From the IMG/VR virus record IMGVR_UViG_3300032893_000003, positions 78,633 through 142,632 of that record: a DNA stretch of 64,000 nucleotides. One strand, given 5' to 3'. The position numbers were made by a program, and so were the translations under genes. Position 1 is the stretch's first letter. Each line of letters begins with the position of its first letter. Positions 858 through 29,203 of the stretch are shown one piece after another. The stretch comes from a virus (Duplodnaviria; Heunggongvirae; Uroviricota; Caudoviricetes). The notes beneath the pieces are model-generated. The model was not told the DNA's origin and ran no database searches. It saw nothing but the letters and a program-made list of their open reading frames with translations.

Positions 858-931
858 TGGCGCTCGGGATGGGAATCGAACCCACCTAACTACTTTTAGA
901 GAGCAGCGCCTGACCGATCGGCCACCCGAGC
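858..931 (-). tRNA. tRNA with anticodon CUA (amber suppressor-type, reads UAG)
   Basis: The reverse complement reads GCTCGGGTGGCCGATCGGTCAGGCGCTGCTCTCTAAAAGTAGTTAGGTGGGTTCGATTCCCATCCCGAGCGCCA. It has a 7-bp acceptor stem GCTCGGG/CCCGAGC, a GGTTCGATTCC T-loop and an encoded CCA. The anticodon stem is CTGCT/AGTAG with a 7-nt loop CUCUAAA, placing CUA at positions 34-36. Confidence 0.7.
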
Positions 932-2095: not shown

Positions 2096-2495
2096 CCTTA
2101 TGAACAGTCTGTTTACTGTAGATGTTGTTCGGATCGATCTTCTCTTCCCACATGGAGCGCTGAATAGCTGGGCTCTTAAACGCCGCCCGTATGAGATCGT
2201 TTTGCATAGATGCCGTCATTTTGTGCGACTCGACATCTTTCTTTAAAAGCTCAACTTCAAAGCGTTGTTCGCGTTTTGCAATGTCAGCCAGCTTAGCATC
2301 TATCTCTTCTTGTTTTTTAACCCTATTCTCTAGCGCCAGAAGTTTTTGATTGCAGGCGTCGTATCGCTCTCGAAGATCAGCATTGGCTTTCTCAAGTTCG
2401 GGAACGCGGGCGGCTTTTGCAAGCTCCGAGCGAAGAGCCTCTACTTGCATCGCAGGCAAGCTCTTAGTTACTAGATCCATAATTTCTTTTGTCAT
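2070..2495 (-). CDS. coiled-coil protein
   Basis: 141 aa with a heptad-like E/K/L/A-rich sequence; an RBS lies upstream. Confidence 0.5.
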   Translation of the reverse strand: MTKEIMDLVTKSLPAMQVEALRSELAKAARVPELEKANADLRERYDACNQKLLALENRVKKQEEIDAKLADIAKREQRFEVELLKKDVESHKMTASMQNDLIRAAFKSPAIQRSMWEEKIDPNNIYSKQTVHKGETTTHGE

Positions 2496-2648
2496 TTGCG
2501 TCTCCTTTGTAAGGCACGCCCGCGGGCAGCCTTGAAGTGGTGGATGATGTAGTCCGTCCTTTAGTAAAGGGTCTTCAATACGGCTAAAACGCCTGTACCT
2601 AGCTATATTATCTTACCACCTCAAGGACTGCCTCGCAGACAGCCAATT

Positions 2649-4133
2649 TTAAAACGGAACGCCTGTGCATTCCGCAAGTCTATTCCTAATCTCTGAGAAC
2701 GTTTGGAAGTTTTGAATCTTCCCGTCTAAGAACACCGTCCGAAGCAGATCATTCGGGTACTCTTCAAGAAGACTCAGACCATCCTGACATTTCAAAACGC
2801 CTGTATCAAGATCGCGATAAACAACGATGCGGCCTTTGGGCGACTTCTTAACACCACTGTCAGTTACAGGATCTTTGAACATTTGGCGCTCCTGTCCGTC
2901 TACAATACAAGCTGTTGCTTTAAGTGCTTGGCCGAGGTTATCGCGCGTATTGTGTTGATACGTGAAAGAACCAATACCGAACACAACATTCGTAGACGCA
3001 AATCCCTTTGCTTCAAGACCAGAGAGGATCTTGTCAGCAATAATAGTTGTAATCGAGTCACCATAGATAGCTCCAATATGCGGATCGAGTTGCTTATAGC
3101 CTTTTAGCGTCATAGTTCCACCAAATATCTCCCACAAGATCTCAATTGTGCCTTTCCGCTCAGCTTCAGTCTTGCCATTTGGATCGCCACAGATGATCTT
3201 TACTGGGTCGCCAGAATCAGGTCGAATGACGACCTTGCCGTCGCGATTCACGATGACATTTCTAAGATCATAGACAACTTTAGTCAGCACATCCCAGTAG
3301 TTCCATGTGTCCGACACGATTGAAACAAAACCCTTTGGGTAAAGCTCCGTGATCAAGAACTTGAAGGTTGCGTGTTCATCTTTTCCGTGAGCACACATAA
3401 CTGAGTGCTCGGTTGCGGGGATAGATGTACCAATGAGCTCCTTTTCAATGTCAGCGCCGTAGAAATGCTCAGTGTACTCGATGCTCGGTGCTGTATCAGT
3501 ACCAACAAACGAGAGAAGATGTGCCGATCCTGATCTTGTGGCTGCGTAAAGTCCCGCCATTCCGCGCATCGAAAAGTCATGCCCTTGGAATTTCACAAAG
3601 CTCGCATCACCTACGGTCTTCATTGCGTAATTGTGAAGAAGCTTTTTATAGACCTGCGCAATAGTTGCGTTATTGATCGATTGCCAGATTTCACAAGACA
3701 TGAGCGTTTCAACCCAGTTTGTGAACCAAAAGAAATCCTTTTCAGTGTTTTGAGATGTGAACATCGGCACTCGAATCGGGACCATTGTTCCTTCAGGTAG
3801 AGCACGAATGTGTAGCGGAACATAACCTAGATCGTGAAGGTCTGCTATGTGCTTAACCTCAGGGTTTTGGTCACCGAGTGTGTACTTCACAAAACGGGTA
3901 TACTTTTTTAGCACGTCATCAATAGGCTGCTTAAAGAAATGCTCGTTAAAGAAGTCAATGAGCCACTCCTGATTGAAGGCCTGAAGATTGTACATAACAG
4001 CCCCGTCAGCTCCGCCGATACGACAAGTGCGCGGTGTCCAAATGGAACTAACAACTTCAGTGTTCTTTGGATATTGTGGCCTATGGGAAAATTTGTAGAA
4101 ATCACATAGAGCCATGGCTTGCGGTGTAAACAT
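2649..4133 (-). CDS. nicotinamide phosphoribosyltransferase-family protein (NAMPT/NadV-like; candidate NARP1 Namat)
   Basis: 494 aa carrying NAMPT signature motifs DFYKFSHRPQYP, IRALPEGTMVPIRVPMFT..FWFTNWVETL and VIRPDSGDP. ATG start with RBS AAAGGAG. Confidence 0.9.
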   Translation of the reverse strand: MFTPQAMALCDFYKFSHRPQYPKNTEVVSSIWTPRTCRIGGADGAVMYNLQAFNQEWLIDFFNEHFFKQPIDDVLKKYTRFVKYTLGDQNPEVKHIADLHDLGYVPLHIRALPEGTMVPIRVPMFTSQNTEKDFFWFTNWVETLMSCEIWQSINNATIAQVYKKLLHNYAMKTVGDASFVKFQGHDFSMRGMAGLYAATRSGSAHLLSFVGTDTAPSIEYTEHFYGADIEKELIGTSIPATEHSVMCAHGKDEHATFKFLITELYPKGFVSIVSDTWNYWDVLTKVVYDLRNVIVNRDGKVVIRPDSGDPVKIICGDPNGKTEAERKGTIEILWEIFGGTMTLKGYKQLDPHIGAIYGDSITTIIADKILSGLEAKGFASTNVVFGIGSFTYQHNTRDNLGQALKATACIVDGQERQMFKDPVTDSGVKKSPKGRIVVYRDLDTGVLKCQDGLSLLEEYPNDLLRTVFLDGKIQNFQTFSEIRNRLAECTGVPF

Positions 4134-4146
4134 TTAAATCTCCTTT

Positions 4147-4434
4147 TTAATAAGAACAATAAAACCTAATAGTCTTTGCTTCTTTGGGGATATCTTTCAC
4201 TTCAATTTCAAATCCGTCACGATGATCATCGCTCCACTCTTCATGGGGTATTTCGATTTCAGCAAACTGCTCTTTGATGTATTCATCTTTGCACTCAATC
4301 TCACTACCGAAATATTCCGTCACCTCTTTTGGATAGCTTAAGCCCTCCTTGTCGCAGTACTGTTTTGCCTTCATCATCTTTTTAAATTTACCGTCAAGGT
4401 CTCGAAATCCGGTTACGTGCATAGACATTCCCAT
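4147..4434 (-). CDS. hypothetical protein between the NAMPT-like and Prs-like genes
   Basis: 95-aa acidic ORF whose start/stop overlap its neighbours (ATGA-type coupling). Confidence 0.5.
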   Translation of the reverse strand: MGMSMHVTGFRDLDGKFKKMMKAKQYCDKEGLSYPKEVTEYFGSEIECKDEYIKEQFAEIEIPHEEWSDDHRDGFEIEVKDIPKEAKTIRFYCSY

Positions 4435-5225
4435 TACTTAATCTCCCCGTCTTTTGTGAAAATACGACTAATCCCCGCATCTCTAAGTGGTTTAAGCCCC
4501 TTAGAGAAGATGCCGTGGCTGACGTATAGATAAAGTTCGCGCGCCCCGTAGGTTTTAAGCTCGTCCGCCGCTTTAATAAATGTCATGCCGCCATCACAAA
4601 TATCGTCCAGCATCAGAATATCGAGGTCACCGAGATTAGTGGCTGGCTTATCGTCACCCCACTTAACGCTAAGCCCTATGATCTCACCTGTTTGCTGATT
4701 CCTTACCTTGTTTCCTATAAGCACTTCATCCATCGGGCGCTCGATGAGCCCAGCATAGCGATTATTGGCACCCTTATCCGGAAAATAGATGCAGTGGGGC
4801 TCACACGCCGCAATAGTTTTACGAATTTCTGTCAAAGGCTGCCGGCTTCTAAGATTGTGGATAAGCTCCGAAGCCACGGGAGAATGGACATCTACGGACA
4901 TCACAAGATCGAACTTAAAAGCGTTAATCACGGTGGCAAAGGTATGTAAGGAAAAAGTGAGGCTATTATCGATCTCTTTGTCCTGTCTGGCGTAAGGTAA
5001 ATAAGGCATATCCAAGTGCTTACTTGCCCTCGGACATTCCTTGTCCAGAAGATTCTTTAGCTGAAGGACAGGCATGAGCTCGCGTTCGTAAGAAAAGTCC
5101 CATGTAATGGTATTGATCGTAATCGCCGAGTGTTTATTAAACCACTCGCCTGGAATTTTCCAAACTTGAGAAGTGCCGTCAGGAAATAGCGTCGGCGTGA
5201 CCTCGTGGTCGTTTAGCAGAATCAT
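4434..5225 (-). CDS. ribose-phosphate pyrophosphokinase (PRPP synthetase)-like protein (candidate NARP1 Adps, ADP-ribose pyrophosphokinase)
   Basis: 263 aa with the Prs-type motif SVDVHS (compare TVDLHA) and the PRPP-binding loop LMLDDICDGGMTF (compare VDDMIDTGGT). It lies immediately upstream of, and is co-transcribed with, the NAMPT-like gene. Confidence 0.8.
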   Translation of the reverse strand: MILLNDHEVTPTLFPDGTSQVWKIPGEWFNKHSAITINTITWDFSYERELMPVLQLKNLLDKECPRASKHLDMPYLPYARQDKEIDNSLTFSLHTFATVINAFKFDLVMSVDVHSPVASELIHNLRSRQPLTEIRKTIAACEPHCIYFPDKGANNRYAGLIERPMDEVLIGNKVRNQQTGEIIGLSVKWGDDKPATNLGDLDILMLDDICDGGMTFIKAADELKTYGARELYLYVSHGIFSKGLKPLRDAGISRIFTKDGEIK

Positions 5226-5517
5226 TGTGTCTCCTTATTTCTTCTAGCATTGCGAGCTTTTCATCTTCAAGCTTTTTTAAATCAATATCGTAGAACTCCG
5301 CGACAAGATCCGTGAGTTTGGCCCTGATTGGAAAGGCAAAGTCGTAATCCAACTCGCGCTTGGCATCAGCAAAGTCCTCGTTATTTTCATAGAACTCCTC
5401 TGAATAGTTTTCCATGAGGCGGATGTCTTTTGTGTCACTCAGCCATTCTATAAACTCATGAATTGCTTGGCTTTTATACTGTATATACTTTAGTTTTTCG
5501 TGCTCGGGTCGTTCCAT
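5179..5517 (-). CDS. hypothetical protein
   Basis: 112-aa acidic ORF overlapping the Prs-like start by 47 nt in another frame. Confidence 0.45.
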   Translation of the reverse strand: MERPEHEKLKYIQYKSQAIHEFIEWLSDTKDIRLMENYSEEFYENNEDFADAKRELDYDFAFPIRAKLTDLVAEFYDIDLKKLEDEKLAMLEEIRRHNDSAKRPRGHADAIS

Positions 5518-5529
5518 TGCAGATCTCCT

Positions 5530-5727
5530 TTAAGTAAAAATGGCCCAGGACTCAAATTCCTCTTCCCAGGACCAGCTAAGGGCTTCCAATCTTTTCTCAT
5601 CCTCGGCTGACATTTTTGTACCAGAAGGGGGACCGGCATAAAACACATCATGTTCTGCCGCAGTTTCGACTGTGCCGTATTTCTTCATAATTTGAAGCCC
5701 TTCGATGATTTCATCTACCGTTGCCAT
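5530..5727 (-). CDS. hypothetical protein
   Basis: 65-aa ORF with an ATG start and RBS. Confidence 0.45.
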   Translation of the reverse strand: MATVDEIIEGLQIMKKYGTVETAAEHDVFYAGPPSGTKMSAEDEKRLEALSWSWEEEFESWAIFT

Positions 5728-5752
5728 AAATCTCCTTTGTTAGCTACTTAGC

Positions 5753-6280
5753 CTATAACAGAGTTACAAGCTTTTGCGACCGGTTGAGCCAGCCATTTAA
5801 GAACTTAATTTGACCTGGATGATCAAGGACGATGTTAACGTAATATTGCTGAACCTGATGGATGAATAGGTAAAAAAAGTTAATTCTATCCATTTTGTTT
5901 ATAGCAAGTAACGACTCGCTCCCCAAATCTCCGTCAGCCGCTACGCCGGCCGCAGTTTGGGCGAAGATCGCAGCTTTGTAGTTACCGAGATTAACTGACA
6001 TATCTAAAATAGCTGTAGCAACTGAAATATCTGTAACATCATCAAGGCTCTGAGCTTTCCAGTAAAATTCCTGATAAATAGATATAGCTTCATCTTTCGT
6101 GAGATTTTGGACATCGTCTGCAGTTGGAACCGGCTGATTTTGAAGTTGTCGCCAGCGGGCTAAGTCATCAAGGGTAATGCCCCATTTCGTCGGGCCGCCA
6201 CCGTCTTCTGGATCGTCTGTGTATTCGGAACCTTCGTTTAGAAGAACGTACTCAATCGCTGTTTGAAAGTCTGCCACCAA
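5753..6280 (-). CDS. glycoside hydrolase family 108 lysozyme with a peptidoglycan-binding-like C-terminal part
   Basis: The N-terminus LNEGSEYTDDPEDGGGPTKWGIT matches the GH108 signature (EGGY.NDP.D.GG.T..GIT). The start is TTG/GTG with a GGGGGTG RBS. The stop codon is TAG. Confidence 0.8.
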   Translation of the reverse strand: MVADFQTAIEYVLLNEGSEYTDDPEDGGGPTKWGITLDDLARWRQLQNQPVPTADDVQNLTKDEAISIYQEFYWKAQSLDDVTDISVATAILDMSVNLGNYKAAIFAQTAAGVAADGDLGSESLLAINKMDRINFFYLFIHQVQQYYVNIVLDHPGQIKFLNGWLNRSQKLVTLL

Positions 6281-6918
6281 GACACCCCCGTGATAGTTCT
6301 ACTGTCCCAAACTATCTGAAAGTTCTCGCTATCGGTAGCGATATCATTCGGTGTCACGGTCGGAACTCCCAAACTCATTTTGGGAACAAAAGGGCTTTTC
6401 ACTTTGTATTTCTGACAAACCTGGTCATAGCACCACCAGACAAGCTCTGAGCAATAAAAAGCTTTCTGCCCCGAGCTGTTGTACAGAAAGTTAAAGTCGT
6501 AAGGTTTACCCACCTGAAGCTTTGCGATGTCTGAGGCTTCCTTCATAATCGTGTCTTTAAGGGCCCCAAGACCTTTTGGCTCAATGATGAGCATATAGTC
6601 CTTAGTCGTCTCGAATGTCACAAGATCCGTATCGAGCACCCCAGGAGCCTCAGCCTGACAAACGCGCTCATCGATCGCCTCCCCAGGCTGCGGCGCATAG
6701 ATCGCTGCATGCGTCCAGAAGCCAGGAATAAAAGCTGTTGTGAGGTCGCCACGGATCACCGTAATGAAGATCGACCCGGGCTTGAGGTAAGGATAGGACT
6801 GATAATAAAGAACGCCTGTGATGAGCTTGTGCGTAAAAGGTAGATGTACGCCGGATGCCCAGATGAGGAAAGGCCGGACTAGACTTAAGAACCAGCCTCG
6901 AATTGTCGCTAAATTCAT
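6238..6918 (-). CDS. putative cell-wall amidase/peptidase, permuted papain-like (NlpC/P60 superfamily, YaeF/YiiX-like)
   Basis: 226 aa with GKPYDFNFLYNSSGQKAFYCSELVWWCY resembling the permuted NlpC/P60 catalytic-Cys region. It overlaps the GH108 gene by 43 nt in a different frame. Confidence 0.45.
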   Translation of the reverse strand: MNLATIRGWFLSLVRPFLIWASGVHLPFTHKLITGVLYYQSYPYLKPGSIFITVIRGDLTTAFIPGFWTHAAIYAPQPGEAIDERVCQAEAPGVLDTDLVTFETTKDYMLIIEPKGLGALKDTIMKEASDIAKLQVGKPYDFNFLYNSSGQKAFYCSELVWWCYDQVCQKYKVKSPFVPKMSLGVPTVTPNDIATDSENFQIVWDSRTITGVSWWQTFKQRLSTFF

Positions 6919-6959
6919 AGAGTTACCTCGTTAATGTCAACTTCCACGCAATAAAAACT

Positions 6960-7220
6960 TCAGCAAATACGTTCTTTATCTATGACATTATCGATGGTTT
7001 TGATTGCCTTTTCAAGAGCGCGGAACTGAACTCGCGTTAAAGCTATGTCCGTGCGATCAAGCATATCTAATTGAGTCCTAATTTCAAGAAGTGCCTTGAC
7101 GATGGTCTCTGGCTTTTTCTTTTCAATCGTTGCGACATGATGTTTGAAGTTGGTGTCAGCTTTCCATCTGTTATATTCCATCTCTGAGGGAGAAATAAAT
7201 TTACACTCTCGACGTTGCAT
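6960..7220 (-). CDS. hypothetical protein
   Basis: 86-aa ORF overlapping the downstream gene start by 20 nt. Confidence 0.4.
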   Translation of the reverse strand: MQRRECKFISPSEMEYNRWKADTNFKHHVATIEKKKPETIVKALLEIRTQLDMLDRTDIALTRVQFRALEKAIKTIDNVIDKERIC

Positions 7221-7686
7221 AAGATCTGCTCACTTTCGCGATTGTCCATCCAATAAGTTGTTCTAAGTTTGCGGCCTGCTGGACTGCGTAGCGGCTGCAG
7301 ACAATGTCCACGTTCCCCTTGCGCCAAAATCCTTCTGGGCAGCATACGATAAGCTTTCCTGTTTTAGCATAAAGCCCAAGTTCTAGAAGAGATATGGGGG
7401 ACTTGGTTGTGGGGTCAAAGTACATCGCTATATGTGTTGCGCGCTCGAGACACGAAAGTTCCCAAGTGACCTGCTCGCGGAACTTATCATTTGATATCTT
7501 CTGTTCCCATGACGAATCCCAGTCATCGCGCCGCGGATTAAGTACGGTCACATCAAGAAACCTAAGCCTGTGTGTTATCTCTGTCTGCCAATCCACTGCC
7601 TTTCCCATCTCAATGCTGCCAGCGAGAAAGACAGAGACAATTGGCGCATCCATAGGGATTGGTTCTGGCGCTTTAACAACAATCAT
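7201..7686 (-). CDS. nucleoside 2-deoxyribosyltransferase-like protein (Rcl/DNPH1-like fold)
   Basis: 161 aa with SVFLAGSIEMGKAVDWQ...LNPRRDDW...ELGLYAKTGKLIV, matching the flavodoxin-like nucleoside deoxyribosyltransferase pattern. RBS GGAGAT. Confidence 0.55.
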   Translation of the reverse strand: MIVVKAPEPIPMDAPIVSVFLAGSIEMGKAVDWQTEITHRLRFLDVTVLNPRRDDWDSSWEQKISNDKFREQVTWELSCLERATHIAMYFDPTTKSPISLLELGLYAKTGKLIVCCPEGFWRKGNVDIVCSRYAVQQAANLEQLIGWTIAKVSRSYATSRV

Positions 7687-7741: not shown

Positions 7742-8044
7742 TTACCTTCTTTTTGGCTTTTTGTCCTCAAATTGAGCGGACAATTTCTTAGCAAAACTCT
7801 CAGTCGCTTTGTCTCCAAAGTGCTCGGCTACCTGATCAAGTGTAACCCAGCCTATAAGATGAAGTGCTTTTCGAGCAGCTTTGCCAGGAACGGCCAGACC
7901 CTCCTCGGTCGTCCCCAAAAGAACTGCATAAAACTCTTTACCTTTATGAGCTTTGTACATGGAGCGAACTGAGGTCTTCTCATCCACTGGTTCTTTTATT
8001 GTAATTGTTTTGGTATAGAAAATGTTGCCGGCGTTGATTTTCAT
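7742..8044 (-). CDS. hypothetical protein
   Basis: 100-aa ORF whose start is overlapped (ATGA) by the stop of the upstream gene. Confidence 0.5.
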   Translation of the reverse strand: MKINAGNIFYTKTITIKEPVDEKTSVRSMYKAHKGKEFYAVLLGTTEEGLAVPGKAARKALHLIGWVTLDQVAEHFGDKATESFAKKLSAQFEDKKPKRR

Positions 8045-8976
8045 AAATCTCCTTTATTTAAAATACCGTTAATGATGCCGCAAATAGCCTCGGGTGGCAA
8101 TGTACTTCCCGTTTCCCGCGGAGAGCCTCCGATAGTGTTGGATCCGCCCCAGCGATTTGCTTCCGTGATATTTTCATCTCGGTTGTTTAGTGCCTCATAG
8201 ATCTTATCAAGCGGAAAATTAATCCACGTTGATTTCCGACCTAGTACATAGATCCCGTGTCCACGATCAGATAGAAAAGCGTTGACCCCGCTTGCGAACA
8301 TGAACATTCGAGATGATGTGCTAGTTTCTTTTACAAAAGACCAGCCGTTAAAAGAATTTAGAACCTCGAAGTGTTTATTAATCGAGCATTGTCCAGCCTT
8401 TCCCATGCAATAATCGCAAATTCTACTACCAACAGAGGCTAGTATTGCCTCCATGAGGGATTGGTCGAATTGCCCGTAAGCAGCATTTTGACGAACAGAT
8501 CTATAGGGCTCAAAGATCCAGGCCATCGTTCGTAGAAACTCCGTATCTCCGAACGGATAAGTGCCGCCCGTGCAATCAAGCCTGTCGTTGCAATAAACAA
8601 GGCGGTTGATATTTGGATATGCGTGATGACCAATCTGCTCGTGATTCACAAGAAGCCAATAGGCAAGGCACGTATCTTCGTCAACGTCATTGACATAGAC
8701 ATTCGCCGTCGGAATTCCATCTTTTCTGAAAGTCTCAAAGAGTCCTAAGTTAATCTCCATATGGACCTGATCGGCTGTTGAACGTGTCGATATGCGATCG
8801 ACAAGAGAATGATGGTCGAAGTTTGCGTAAGGACCTTTAGAATCCCTGCGTGTGGGCCCATCAACAAAGCCATCAAGTGCTATCGAATAGGGCGGATAAT
8901 CTTTAGTGAATGTTTCCCAAGAAATAGTTTTCCGTGGTTCTATGTGTAAATTAATCATGTTAAATCTCCTCACCAA
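8041..8976 (-). CDS. hypothetical protein (311 aa)
   Basis: Long intact ORF with an ATG start and RBS. No confident domain assignment. Confidence 0.55.
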   Translation of the reverse strand: MVRRFNMINLHIEPRKTISWETFTKDYPPYSIALDGFVDGPTRRDSKGPYANFDHHSLVDRISTRSTADQVHMEINLGLFETFRKDGIPTANVYVNDVDEDTCLAYWLLVNHEQIGHHAYPNINRLVYCNDRLDCTGGTYPFGDTEFLRTMAWIFEPYRSVRQNAAYGQFDQSLMEAILASVGSRICDYCMGKAGQCSINKHFEVLNSFNGWSFVKETSTSSRMFMFASGVNAFLSDRGHGIYVLGRKSTWINFPLDKIYEALNNRDENITEANRWGGSNTIGGSPRETGSTLPPEAICGIINGILNKGDL

Positions 8977-9015
8977 ACTTATAACTTTTAAACGACGGTT
9001 TTGGTAAGAATAAAA

Positions 9016-9104
9016 TGGCGGAGGAGCCAGGATTCGAACCTGGACGGCTGTTACGCCTTGCTAGCTTAGCACGCTAGTGGTTTAACCAATTCACCCACTC
9101 TTCC
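9016..9104 (-). tRNA. tRNA-Ser (anticodon GCU), type II
   Basis: The reverse complement GGAAGAGTGGGTGAATTGGT...GGTTCGAATCCTGGCTCCTCCGCCA has anticodon stem CTAGC/GCTAG with loop GUGCUAA and a long variable arm. There is one A-C mismatch in the acceptor stem. Confidence 0.65.
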
Positions 9105-9114
9105 ATAATAAAGT

Positions 9115-9206
9115 TGGCGGAGGACCCGAGATTCGAACTCGGACGGCCTTTTCGAGCCTCGCCGGTTTTCAAGACCGGTGGTTTCGTCCATTTCACCCAA
9201 TCCTCC
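9115..9206 (-). tRNA. tRNA-Ser (anticodon UGA), type II
   Basis: The reverse complement GGAGGATTGGGTGAAATGG...CCGGTCTTGAAAACCGG...GAGTTCGAATCTCGGGTCCTCCGCCA has loop CUUGAAA and a long variable arm. Confidence 0.75.
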
Positions 9207-9212
9207 AACAAC

Positions 9213-9300
9213 TGGTGGAGAGAGGTAGATTTGAACTACCGCGGCCCCGAAGGACACCGGTTTTACAGACCGGCCGTTTCAGCCTCTCACGCATCTCTCC
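9213..9300 (-). tRNA. tRNA-Tyr (anticodon GUA), bacterial type with long variable arm
   Basis: The reverse complement GGAGAGATGCGTG...CCGGTCTGTAAAACCGG...GGTAGTTCAAATCTACCTCTCTCCACCA has loop CUGUAAA. Confidence 0.75.
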
Positions 9301-9307
9301 ACAAAAA

Positions 9308-9384
9308 TGGTCTGGGTGGCAGGATTTGAACCTGCGACTTCCTGGTTCCAGGCCAGGATCTCTACCGGACTGAGTTACACCCAG
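9308..9384 (-). tRNA. tRNA-Pro (anticodon UGG) candidate
   Basis: The reverse complement CTGGGTGTAACTCAGTCCGGTAGAGATCCTGGCCTGGAACCAGGAAGTCGCAGGTTCAAATCCTGCCACCCAGACCA has a perfect acceptor stem CTGGGTG/CACCCAG and anticodon stem CCTGG/CCAGG with loop CCUGGAA. Position 33 is an unusual C, which lowers confidence. Confidence 0.55.
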
Positions 9385-9406
9385 ATATCTAAAACAAAAC
9401 CTCCTT

Positions 9407-9484
9407 TGGTGTCGGGGGTGGGATTTGAACCCACAGCTTTACGGCTCTTAAGGCCGTTGCGTATGCCAATTCCGCCACCCCGAC
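9407..9484 (-). tRNA. tRNA-Leu-like (anticodon UAA) with an atypically short variable arm
   Basis: The reverse complement GTCGGGGTGGCGGAATTGGCATACGCAACGGCCTTAAGAGCCGTAAAGCTGTGGGTTCAAATCCCACCCCCGACACCA has a Leu-type D-arm (TGGCGGAATTGG) and an A73 discriminator. The loop is CUUAAGA. The variable region is only about 5 nt, so it is not the type II arm expected for Leu. Confidence 0.5.
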
Positions 9485-9485
9485 A

Positions 9486-9568
9486 TGGTGCCCTCAGGGA
9501 GAGTCGAACTCCCACGCTTGCGCGATCGCTTCTAAGGCGATTGTGTCTGCCAGTTCCACCACAAGGGC
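9486..9568 (-). tRNA. tRNA-Leu (anticodon UAG), type II
   Basis: The reverse complement GCCCTTGTGGTGGAACTGGCAGACACAATCGCCTTAGAAGCGATCGCGCAAGCGTGGGAGTTCGACTCTCCCTGAGGGCACCA has loop CUUAGAA and a 12-nt variable arm. Confidence 0.75.
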
Positions 9569-10436: not shown

Positions 10437-10861
10437 TGGTGTAGGTAGCGGGAATCGAACCCGCGTCCACAAAAACTTTCAAACGCTCTCTACATACTTA
10501 GCCGTCTTCTGGTCAGGCTGACCCGCTTGCAGTTAAACTCGGCAAGCTCACGATTGGGGGCGGACTACACCGCCAGATCCACCAGCCCGTATTTTGCGCT
10601 ACGACGGGACCGCGCAGGATTTGCCGCGTGTTTTTATCCAGGTCACTTCAGCCAGCTCCTGGTTTTGGTGGTCTTTAGTTTCAAGGCTTCCACCGGCCCC
10701 GCGCGCTACGGATTAGGCAGCGCGAGCGACTGCAGCCTTGCGGCCGAAGTCAACGTGTACGACATTGTCGCCACTTAATAAGTTGCATCATTGATGATCC
10801 GTTCATGCTCCGGGGTATGCAAACGCTTGTCTGTATTCCGTGTCGAAACCATGTTACCCAC
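10437..10861 (-). ncRNA. ssrA: tmRNA (transfer-messenger RNA, SsrA)
   Basis: The reverse complement begins GTGGGTAACATGGTTTCGACACGG (compare the E. coli 5' end GGGGCUGAUUCUGGAUUCGACGGG). It ends ...CTAAGTATGTAGAGAGCGTTTGAAAGTTTTTGTGGACGCGGGTTCGATTCCCGCTACCTACACCA, with a tRNA-like T-arm, acceptor pairing GTGGGTA/TACCTAC and CCA. An internal ORF ends ...GCT GCA GTC GCT CGC GCT GCC TAA (AAVARAA*), consistent with a tag reading frame. Confidence 0.85.
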
Positions 10862-28765: not shown

Positions 28766-29203
28766 TTATACCTGAGTTTTCGGACCAATGGTCTTGGTCT
28801 CGAAGTCGCGGATAATAAGCTGTCTGAGGCGACTCGACGATACCGGATGCAGCCGCTCACAGTAGTGAATCTGAATGTCCTCTATATCCTTGCCGGTAAA
28901 AGGCTTATCTTCGTAATCAGATCCCAAGAAGCGGACAGCTGGCATGATGAGTAAAAGTAAATTTTTCAAGTCTTCTTCCGTTTCGTAAGGGATAACTTCG
29001 TCAACATAGCGACAAGCTTTAAGAGACAAATATCTTTCAGCCGCTGATTGAACGGGCTTATTCTTGCTAGGGCGCTCACGGCTAGGATCCACATGAAGAG
29101 CTGCGATTAAGTAGTCGCAATTTTCCTTGGCTTCTTTGAGCATTACGATGTGGCCGGCGTGTGGTCCTAGATCAAAGCATGAGGCGACAAATCCGATTTT
29201 CAT
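28766..29203 (-). CDS. cytidylyltransferase-like (H/T)xGH nucleotidyltransferase (TagD/HldE-domain-II-like; an NMN adenylyltransferase function is not excluded)
   Basis: 145 aa with the N-terminal GFVASCFDLGPHAGHIVMLKEA (FD...H.GH) and RYVDEVIP (compare TagD IRYVDEVIPE). Confidence 0.7.
   Translation of the reverse strand: MKIGFVASCFDLGPHAGHIVMLKEAKENCDYLIAALHVDPSRERPSKNKPVQSAAERYLSLKACRYVDEVIPYETEEDLKNLLLLIMPAVRFLGSDYEDKPFTGKDIEDIQIHYCERLHPVSSSRLRQLIIRDFETKTIGPKTQV

Follow-up and report, generated by a model that had tools for sequence, protein, structure and literature searches.

Does a pair of minus-strand genes near the start of this stretch, one encoding a protein resembling phosphoribosyl pyrophosphate (PRPP) synthetase (Prs) and the other a protein resembling NAMPT, form an operon of the phage pathway NARP1 (NAD+ reconstitution pathway 1), or does it serve classical NAD+ salvage? 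The stretch, here called the window, comprises 64,000 nucleotides (nt) of an uncultured phage of ~175 kb (IMG/VR record IMGVR_UViG_3300032893_000003; source contig 175,168 bp). An earlier note, made without database searches, had proposed that the pair resembles NARP1, a pathway that was described in 2024, is present in ~4.3% of phage genomes, and has operons already known to carry inserted genes. The sequence covered here consists of the window and 5.8 kb beyond its start, with ~105 kb of the genome outside the scan. The open reading frames (ORFs) concerned are the following, with lengths in amino acids (aa):

4434-5225, minus strand: adps, ADP-ribose pyrophosphate synthetase homolog (Prs-like); 263 aa; AAGGAG ribosome-binding site at 5231-5236
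4147-4434, minus strand: orf95, orphan gene between adps and namat; 95 aa; no Pfam, PHROG or NCBIfam match
2649-4133, minus strand: namat, nicotinamide ADP-ribose transferase homolog (NAMPT-like); 494 aa; AAGGAG ribosome-binding site at 4140-4145

The locus is assigned as a NARP1 operon with a probability of about 0.86. This assignment is based on homology, catalytic and selectivity residues, clade membership, synteny and operon packing, and it upholds the pairing proposed in the earlier note on the grounds of similarity, a selectivity clamp motif, an Adps residue signature, the presence of a linked Namat gene in 33 of 33 related loci, and the lack of an adjacent NMNAT gene. Both enzymatic activities and the anti-defence phenotype are transferred by analogy from the assayed SPbetaL1, Bas63 and FADO systems. 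On this model, Adps would transfer pyrophosphate from ATP to the free ribose of ADP-ribose (ADPR), which NADases of the SIR2, TIR and SEFIR types leave behind, yielding ADP-ribose pyrophosphate (ADPR-PP). Namat would then exchange the pyrophosphate of ADPR-PP for nicotinamide (NAM), giving NAD+ directly without nicotinamide mononucleotide (NMN) or an NMNAT, and the phage would thereby be able to replicate in hosts defended by NAD+ depletion. The locus adds another case of an already described pathway that is widespread and whose mechanism and structure have been characterised, and its residual novelty lies in an association with a PF15891 gene and in the orphan insert.

The Namat and Adps homologs

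Minus-strand genes run unbroken through the first 9 kb of the window, and the three ORFs that the earlier note had placed at 2649-5225 are all present and tightly packed, with namat located two genes downstream of adps. The adps stop and orf95 start share 1 nt (TAATG); one AAGGAG ribosome-binding site lies 5 nt before the adps ATG, and another begins directly after the orf95 stop, 6 nt before the namat ATG. Within 2649-5225, the minus strand shows no motif resembling a promoter or a terminator. The note had also described the pair as co-transcribed with one small ORF between them; this packing fits co-translation, and orf95 would be co-expressed with adps and namat. A megablast search of positions 2400-5600 against 50,697 phage records (INPHARED) returned no match, and a second assembly (SRR8879131, locus L120) matches at 100% identity across 6,835 nt and reaches 5.8 kb past the window start.

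The 494-aa protein contains the Pfam domains PF04095 NAPRTase (1.9e-39) and PF18127 NAMPT_N, and matches phrog_448 at 7e-188. Its best match in the Protein Data Bank (PDB) is 9w5x/9w5w (7e-189, 631 bits), with human NAMPT scoring ~240 bits (~1e-70) and the Xanthomonas (Xcc) Nampt 189 bits. Because the chain numbering matches (D13, Y15, R40), 9w5x/9w5w are taken to be the SPbetaL1 Namat of PMC12774641. Identity of the window protein reaches 58% with SPbetaL1 Namat and 57% with FADO Namat, both from experimentally validated systems; it is 43-44% with the Felixounavirus and Kashira Namats, and 31% with KVP40 NadV, the assayed Nampt of the NARP2 pathway. A neighbor-joining tree was built from 54 sequences: 52 non-redundant homologs of Namat taken from the fetched loci, KVP40 NadV and the window protein. 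It places the window protein within the Adps-linked clade, near SPbetaL1 and FADO, with KVP40 NadV as a distant outgroup. The PDB entries 9ke8/9keo (490 bits to the window Namat) were dropped as a NARP2 reference (not an INPHARED phage, best 55%), and KVP40 NadV was used.

The preference of Namat for ADPR-PP has been attributed to a Nampt-like catalytic core combined with an adenine selectivity clamp, which is formed by a loop and a helix (PMC12774641). The clamp helix has the consensus GS-X-phi-X-phi-X-phi-TRD in which positions 3 and 7 are occupied by aromatics, the third residue of the clamp loop is Arg, Lys or Tyr and stacks on the adenine, and single clamp mutations lowered activity merely 1.3- to 1.7-fold (PMC12774641). 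The catalytic core residues of the window protein (F187, R190, D213, H243, R304 and D306) are all identical to their SPbetaL1 counterparts (F189, R192, D215, H245, R306 and D308). Besides the catalytic H243, 23 of the 24 listed ligand residues, which contact NAM, NMN or AMP, are identical or as in other Namats; the window protein has an A362S change, with Ser likewise found in FADO, allfine and Kashira, and the other change is Y396H in the clamp. The clamp loop aligns without gaps and at the same length (TPRTCR-IGG vs TPRTSR-VED in SPbetaL1), placing R38 at the position of R40. The clamp helix reads GSFTYQHNTRD, with Phe at position 3 and His, aromatic yet atypical there, at position 7 (Y396H in SPbetaL1 numbering). 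Position 7 appears to tolerate change, because Tyr (43), Phe (10), Met (3), Cys (1) and His (1) all occur among the 58 Namat homologs sampled. Both clamp aromatics are lacking in KVP40 NadV (GGGLLQQLDRD) and human NAMPT (GGGLLQKLTRD), which have Gly at position 3 and Gln or Lys at position 7. These sequence comparisons support classification of the 494-aa protein as a putative Namat rather than a Nampt.

Two observations from other loci concern the clamp. Three Adps-linked loci with a Macro gene (L024-L026, 7498-8904) encode a Nampt-like protein without the aromatic clamp (GGLLLQSHSRD), and in L115 (10595-11956) Macro and deoxyribosyltransferase-like genes adjoin a NARP2-type Nampt (GGALLQQVDRD). 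Not every enzyme linked to Adps may therefore carry the clamp motif.

The 263-aa protein matches PF14572 Pribosyl_synth weakly (1.7e-5), as well as PF00156 (Pribosyltran) and phrog_619 (1.4e-61); for Bas63 gp79-80, Osterman et al. (10.1101/2024.02.11.579819) reported the families PF14572, PF18127 and PF04095. The 263-aa protein misses every curated NCBIfam cut-off for Prs, scoring 75 bits against the 113 required by TIGR01251, and the assayed SPbetaL1 Adps likewise falls below this cut-off at 106 bits. Identity is 33% to SPbetaL1 Adps, 37% to the Bas63-type Adps and 22% to E. coli Prs, with values of 33-37% spanning the SPbetaL1, Felixounavirus and Kashira Adps proteins; the best tblastn identities are 36% in INPHARED and 46% in IMG/VR. 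Even between validated Adps proteins, identity across phage lineages is just 29-36%. A hidden Markov model (HMM) built from 37 Namat-linked Adps, each less than 40% identical to the window protein, scores the window protein at 232 bits and E. coli Prs, the sole Prs outgroup in this subfamily comparison, at 161 bits. In the comparison of Adps and Namat versus Prs and NadV put forward in the earlier note, both proteins fall on the Adps-Namat side, by HMM score for the first and by identity (58% vs 31%) for the second.

Mutation of K162 inactivated SPbetaL1 Adps (Osterman et al., 10.1101/2024.02.11.579819), and this catalytic lysine corresponds to K173 in the window protein, in the motif GNKVRNQQTGEI. 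At positions conserved in at least 80% of 49 Adps homologs, the window protein is identical at 39 of 41. Among these 39 are clade-specific states that differ from E. coli Prs, for instance the ribose-5-phosphate loop DDICDGGxTF (DDMIDTGGTL in E. coli) and K-x-R-[DN]-x-x-T-G (KRRP in E. coli); such Adps-specific loop differences may make room for the ADP moiety. A Namat homolog lies downstream on the same strand in all 33 IMG/VR loci that encode relatives of the window Adps. Across the Adps clade, a Namat homolog is found within 10 genes in 97% of cases, a linkage that defines the clade. Taken together, these features support placing the 263-aa protein as a predicted member of the Adps subfamily and not a bona fide Prs. 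The adps start is overlapped by 47 nt (5179-5225) by a 112-aa ORF (phrog_21869), and the overlap appears real because the adps product can be aligned with Prs and Adps from about residue 10 of its N-terminus onward.

The divergence of Adps is the single feature that would fit decayed, non-functional remnants. Against this stand intact full-length ORFs, strong ribosome-binding sites and the retention of all catalytic residues, as well as the SRR8879131 assembly, identical over 6.8 kb, and decay is regarded as highly improbable.

The search for an NMNAT

The earlier note had observed that no NMNAT adjoins the NAMPT-like gene, and this holds more widely, as none was found in the window or its 5.8-kb extension. 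By Pfam, no NMNAT, NUDIX, Macro, NADAR, PnuC or NadR was detected in these 64 kb plus 5.8 kb of the genome, the other ~105 kb lying outside the scan; the sweep covered 57 ORFs of at least 105 aa past position 9000, with the first 9 kb and the extension scanned separately. RyR (PF02026) had no match among the scanned neighbours. NARP2, NARP1-AP and NARP3, the last consisting of a PnuC-like transporter and a NadR-like enzyme (PMC13464706), are unsupported because no NMNAT/NUDIX, Macro, PnuC or NadR occurs in the scanned sequence.

Two nucleotidyltransferase-like genes were considered as NMNAT candidates and rejected. The first encodes a 115-aa CTP_transf_like protein (L120:7422-7769), located 3.2 kb downstream of namat and 0.6-0.9 kb past the window start. 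It scores 84 bits against the PPAT model TIGR01510 (cut-off 103) and at most 24 bits against NMNAT models, with which it shares the HxGH motif only; its best PDB matches are all PPAT, and it has no Nudix domain, unlike NatV. This protein appears PPAT-like with a ~30-residue internal deletion relative to CoaD. The second, a CTP_transf_like gene at 28766-29203, is an RfaE-II/TagD-like sugar nucleotidyltransferase gene that lies amid sugar-modification genes.

Several points weigh against NARP1. The window Adps shares just 33-37% identity with any characterised homolog, and the neighbor-joining tree carries no bootstrap values and has a single NARP2 outgroup. At clamp position 7 the window Namat has His in place of the usual Tyr or Phe, the sole His among the 58 sampled homologs. 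SPbetaL1 Namat makes NMN from PRPP too (PMC12774641), so sequence alone cannot quantify substrate preference. An NMNAT encoded in the ~105 kb of the genome beyond the scanned sequence is compatible with the data. The clamp histidine and the NMN-forming activity of SPbetaL1 Namat in vitro (PMC12774641) also favour classical salvage along NARP2-like lines, in which the Prs-like protein would supply PRPP, the NAMPT-like protein would make NMN, and a host NMNAT or a phage nucleotidyltransferase would complete the route; both proteins' membership of the Prs and NAMPT superfamilies and the nearby CTP_transf_like gene at L120:7422-7769 point the same way. Salvage is nonetheless considered unlikely, as the NAMPT-like protein belongs to the Namat clade, with 31% identity to NadV and a clamp that is absent from NARP2 and cellular Nampts, and the Prs-like protein falls under all Prs cut-offs and carries Adps-specific residues. 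In addition, the 115-aa protein fits PPAT and not NMNAT and lacks a Nudix domain, and no phage with both pathways was found by Osterman et al. (10.1101/2024.02.11.579819). NARP1 is the preferred assignment.

The inserted gene and the surrounding genes

The orf95 product has no Pfam, PHROG or NCBIfam match, and a single homolog (P0002, 59% identity) was found among 5.8 billion proteins, on a 1.5-kb contig next to a GIY-YIG gene and not beside NARP1. The gene is absent in all 33 related operons, and the AlphaFold2 (AF2) model, with a predicted local distance difference test (pLDDT) score of 52, is unreliable. Identification of orf95 as a Macro/Adpp or RyDEP gene was rejected, as neither a Macro nor a RyR (PF02026) signature is present. 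Insertions between adps and namat are common: eight of the sampled lineages carry HNH-like, Macro, kinase/HAD or other genes there. On the simplest reading, orf95 would be a passenger gene, either mobile or specific to this lineage; a weaker reading is that the operon carries it as the gene of a new small anti-defence protein. In several related loci (L081, L092, L101, L103/L104 and L072), a ~146-aa HAD-type phosphatase gene (weak PF08282) directly follows adps, mostly between adps and namat; this phosphatase may correspond to Adpp, the Macro-domain enzyme that dephosphorylates ADPR-1''-phosphate, without being a Macro protein itself.

A further gene of interest, nucleoside 2-deoxyribosyltransferase-like (NDT-like), lies upstream of the operon beyond a group of same-strand genes:

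5179 to upstream of the adps start, minus strand: orf112, phrog_21869, a PHROG with no assigned function
5179-7220, minus strand: same-strand genes between adps and the NDT-like gene (orf112, orf65, GH108 endolysin, C92 amidase, orf86)
5753-6280, minus strand: GH108 endolysin (lysis cassette)
6238-6918, minus strand: C92 amidase (lysis cassette)
7201-7686, minus strand: NDT-like gene; 161 aa; PF15891, 1.2e-38

The genes at 5179-7220 are probably not part of the NAD+ pathway. The NDT-like gene, which the earlier note had placed 2 kb away, is real (PF15891), and at these E-values over full-length ORFs the homology of both the pair and the PF15891 gene is far beyond chance. The only PDB relative of its product by sequence is the uncharacterised 4mcj. 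The protein has the conserved Glu at the end of beta-4 that marks the NDT fold, and all 46 homologs compared retain Glu102 (LLELG), Arg52-Arg53 and five tryptophans. The PF15891 family has at least 8,000 members, nearly all unnamed.

Gene neighbourhoods were sampled at 80 IMG/VR loci with close relatives of this protein (53-70% identity). A Namat homolog lies within 10 kb in 30 of the 80, always on the same strand (30 of 30) and mostly within 1.2 kb (27 of 30); after dereplication the linkage is seen in 20 of 60 clusters at 95% identity and in 9 of 42 at 75%. Overall, close relatives thus adjoin or interrupt a NARP1 operon in 20-40% of viral loci. The published genome frequency of 4.3% and the ranking of neighbours within the sample served as background, since a control scan with the neighbouring GH108 endolysin gave one locus and was unusable as a background rate. 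Namat is the commonest neighbour family of close PF15891 relatives, ahead of Adps, GIY-YIG-like, Thg1, Macro and HAD phosphatase genes. The architectures found include Adps-NDT-Namat, Adps-HAD-Namat-NDT, Adps-Macro-Namat-NDT-HAD, Adps-Namat-NADAR-NDT-Macro, and Macro-NDT beside a NARP2-type Nampt. Many unrelated loci (L066, L068, L079, L085, L087, L090, L102, L113 and L114) also have a Thg1-like tRNA-His guanylyltransferase gene (PF04446, 9e-28) only a few genes away from namat, and one lies near the validated FADO operon (L002:6698-7426).

From gene neighbourhoods alone, it is tentatively suggested that the PF15891 enzyme could be an unrecognised accessory of phage NAD+ reconstitution, although this is on balance doubtful. 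Such an enzyme might act as an N-glycosidase or transglycosidase, converting a NAD+-derived product or immune signal to ADP-ribose or nicotinamide for NARP1; candidate substrates would be N-glycosidic ADPR signals (His-ADPR, or N7- and N1-cyclic ADPR) or NMN and nicotinamide riboside, and the role would parallel those of Macro Adpp and RyDEP. Several findings argue against an accessory function. One ~170-kb contig (L011/L042) encodes relatives of the window Adps and NDT at loci more than 100 kb apart, three cultured jumbo phages have a PF15891 gene with no annotated NARP1 nearby, and the gene occurs in 1 of ~25 lineages selected by Adps. Auxiliary nucleotide-metabolism genes cluster in phages anyway, and in the window the lysis cassette parts the NDT-like gene from adps. 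Searchable papers contain no mention of PF15891 and no link between NARP1 and a deoxyribosyltransferase. The PF15891 gene is a more interesting lead than the NARP1 pair itself.

Both orf95 and the PF15891 gene bear on a modified or extended pathway, in which the pair would act on a related but different substrate such as another ADPR derivative, orf95 and/or the PF15891 enzyme would be obligatory, and the core pair alone would be insufficient. The orphan gene is translationally coupled within the operon, Y396H was found nowhere else among the sampled homologs, three-gene NARP1 variants with Macro Adpp or RyDEP are known (10.64898/2026.01.28.702374; 10.64898/2026.05.28.727677), and PF15891 genes recur in NARP1 operons. 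However, the catalytic residues match canonical Namat and Adps, as do all other residues in contact with substrate, orf95 occurs in none of the 33 related operons and its lone homolog is not beside NARP1, and the known accessories supply input substrates while leaving the core chemistry unchanged. An obligatory extension is judged very unlikely, and a two-enzyme NARP1 core is preferred.

Further genes were observed on either side of the operon. Two genes upstream of the NDT-like gene, a 311-aa ORF (8041-8976, minus strand) contains motifs resembling those of DHH phosphoesterases by eye (DGFVDG, NFDHHS, DVDEDT and GGSNTIGGS), with no match in Pfam, PHROGs, NCBIfam or PDB sequences. Downstream of NARP1, L120:5997-12337 encodes an S8 subtilase, a C1 papain-like peptidase, a SpoU methylase, a helix-turn-helix (HTH) protein and a 78-aa protein. 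The last is listed as PF26761 (Acb5) in the precomputed annotation, a match that our own Pfam scan did not return; this region may be an anti-defence or auxiliary island. A tRNA with the amber suppressor anticodon CUA is located at 858-931 (minus strand), labelled tRNA-Pyl by ARAGORN and confirmed as a tRNA by Rfam (52 bits). TAG is the stop codon of 12 of the 95 ORFs of at least 80 aa, and wholesale TAG recoding is not evident in the window. A cluster of six tRNAs (Ser-GCU, Ser-UGA, Tyr, Pro, Leu-UAA and Leu-UAG) and a tmRNA occupy 9016-9568 and 10437-10861, both on the minus strand; the phage tmRNA (Rfam RF00023, 106 bits) encodes the tag peptide GDNVVHVDFGRKAAVARAA. The remainder of the window (~12-32 kb and 32-64 kb) is given to auxiliary functions and replication and encodes TerC, Band_7/SPFH, vWA/TerF-like, phage integrase, MazG, PNKP-type HAD and DSP-PTPase proteins, a sugar-modification set (NAD-dependent epimerase, GT21/GT2 and cytidylyltransferase), an AEP-TOTE primase, SNF2/DEAD helicases and an SbcC-like ATPase. 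Genes for structural proteins were not seen across ~12-64 kb of the window, and gene strand and GC skew flip near 40 kb.

Comparison with known systems

As one divergent environmental example added to a well-described counter-defence pathway, this locus alone changes little. The published Namat clamp motif and the Adps residue signature can, however, classify metagenomic Prs/NAMPT pairs without biochemistry, and a natural Tyr396-to-His clamp variant and a highly divergent Adps are available for structure-function work. PF15891 genes recur as neighbours of NARP1, as do genes for small HAD phosphatases and Thg1-like proteins in related loci, which may lengthen the list of enzymes that return NAD+ breakdown products or immune signals to NAD+.

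Folds and catalytic chemistry are shared with the cellular Prs enzymes (E. coli, B. subtilis and archaeal class III) and Nampts (human and Xanthomonas), the shared chemistry being pyrophosphoryl transfer from ATP in Prs and phosphoribosyl-type transfer to nicotinamide in Nampt. Relative to E. coli Prs (22% identity), the window protein lacks the N-terminal ~20 residues and has DGGMT in place of the DTGGT loop. NARP2 (KVP40 NadV and NatV) likewise restores NAD+ and its NadV is homologous to Namat, but NadV is 31% identical to the window protein and without the aromatic clamp, and no NMNAT/Nudix was found in the scanned window sequence. NARP3 (PnuC and NadR-like) also shares NAD+ restoration, with neither family seen in the Pfam sweeps. 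The NARP1-AP system of Vibrio phage Gary (Adps-Adpp(Macro)-Namat) and the RyDEP-linked NARP1 of mycobacteriophage DyoEdafos resemble the window operon in having a third gene; orf95 differs in carrying neither the Macro signature of the former nor the RyR (PF02026) signature of the latter.

Among the two-gene systems, the Felixounavirus NARP1 (Bas63 gp79-80, compared via Escherichia phage allfine) has the same Pfam signature and operon logic, and its Adps (37%) gives one of the highest identities to any cultured-phage Adps; its Namat (43%) is 593 aa long, with a ~100-aa insertion that is absent in the window protein. From the SPbetaL1 NARP1 (Adps WIT26982 and Namat WIT26983; 9w5w/9w5x), the window operon differs by an Adps of 33% identity, the 95-aa insert, the replacement of Tyr396 by His, and an unrelated host and phage lineage. 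The two systems are alike in the length and Arg of the clamp loop, the catalytic His, the NAD+ contacts and the Adps Lys; their Namats are 58% identical, and the adps-then-namat order is common to both.

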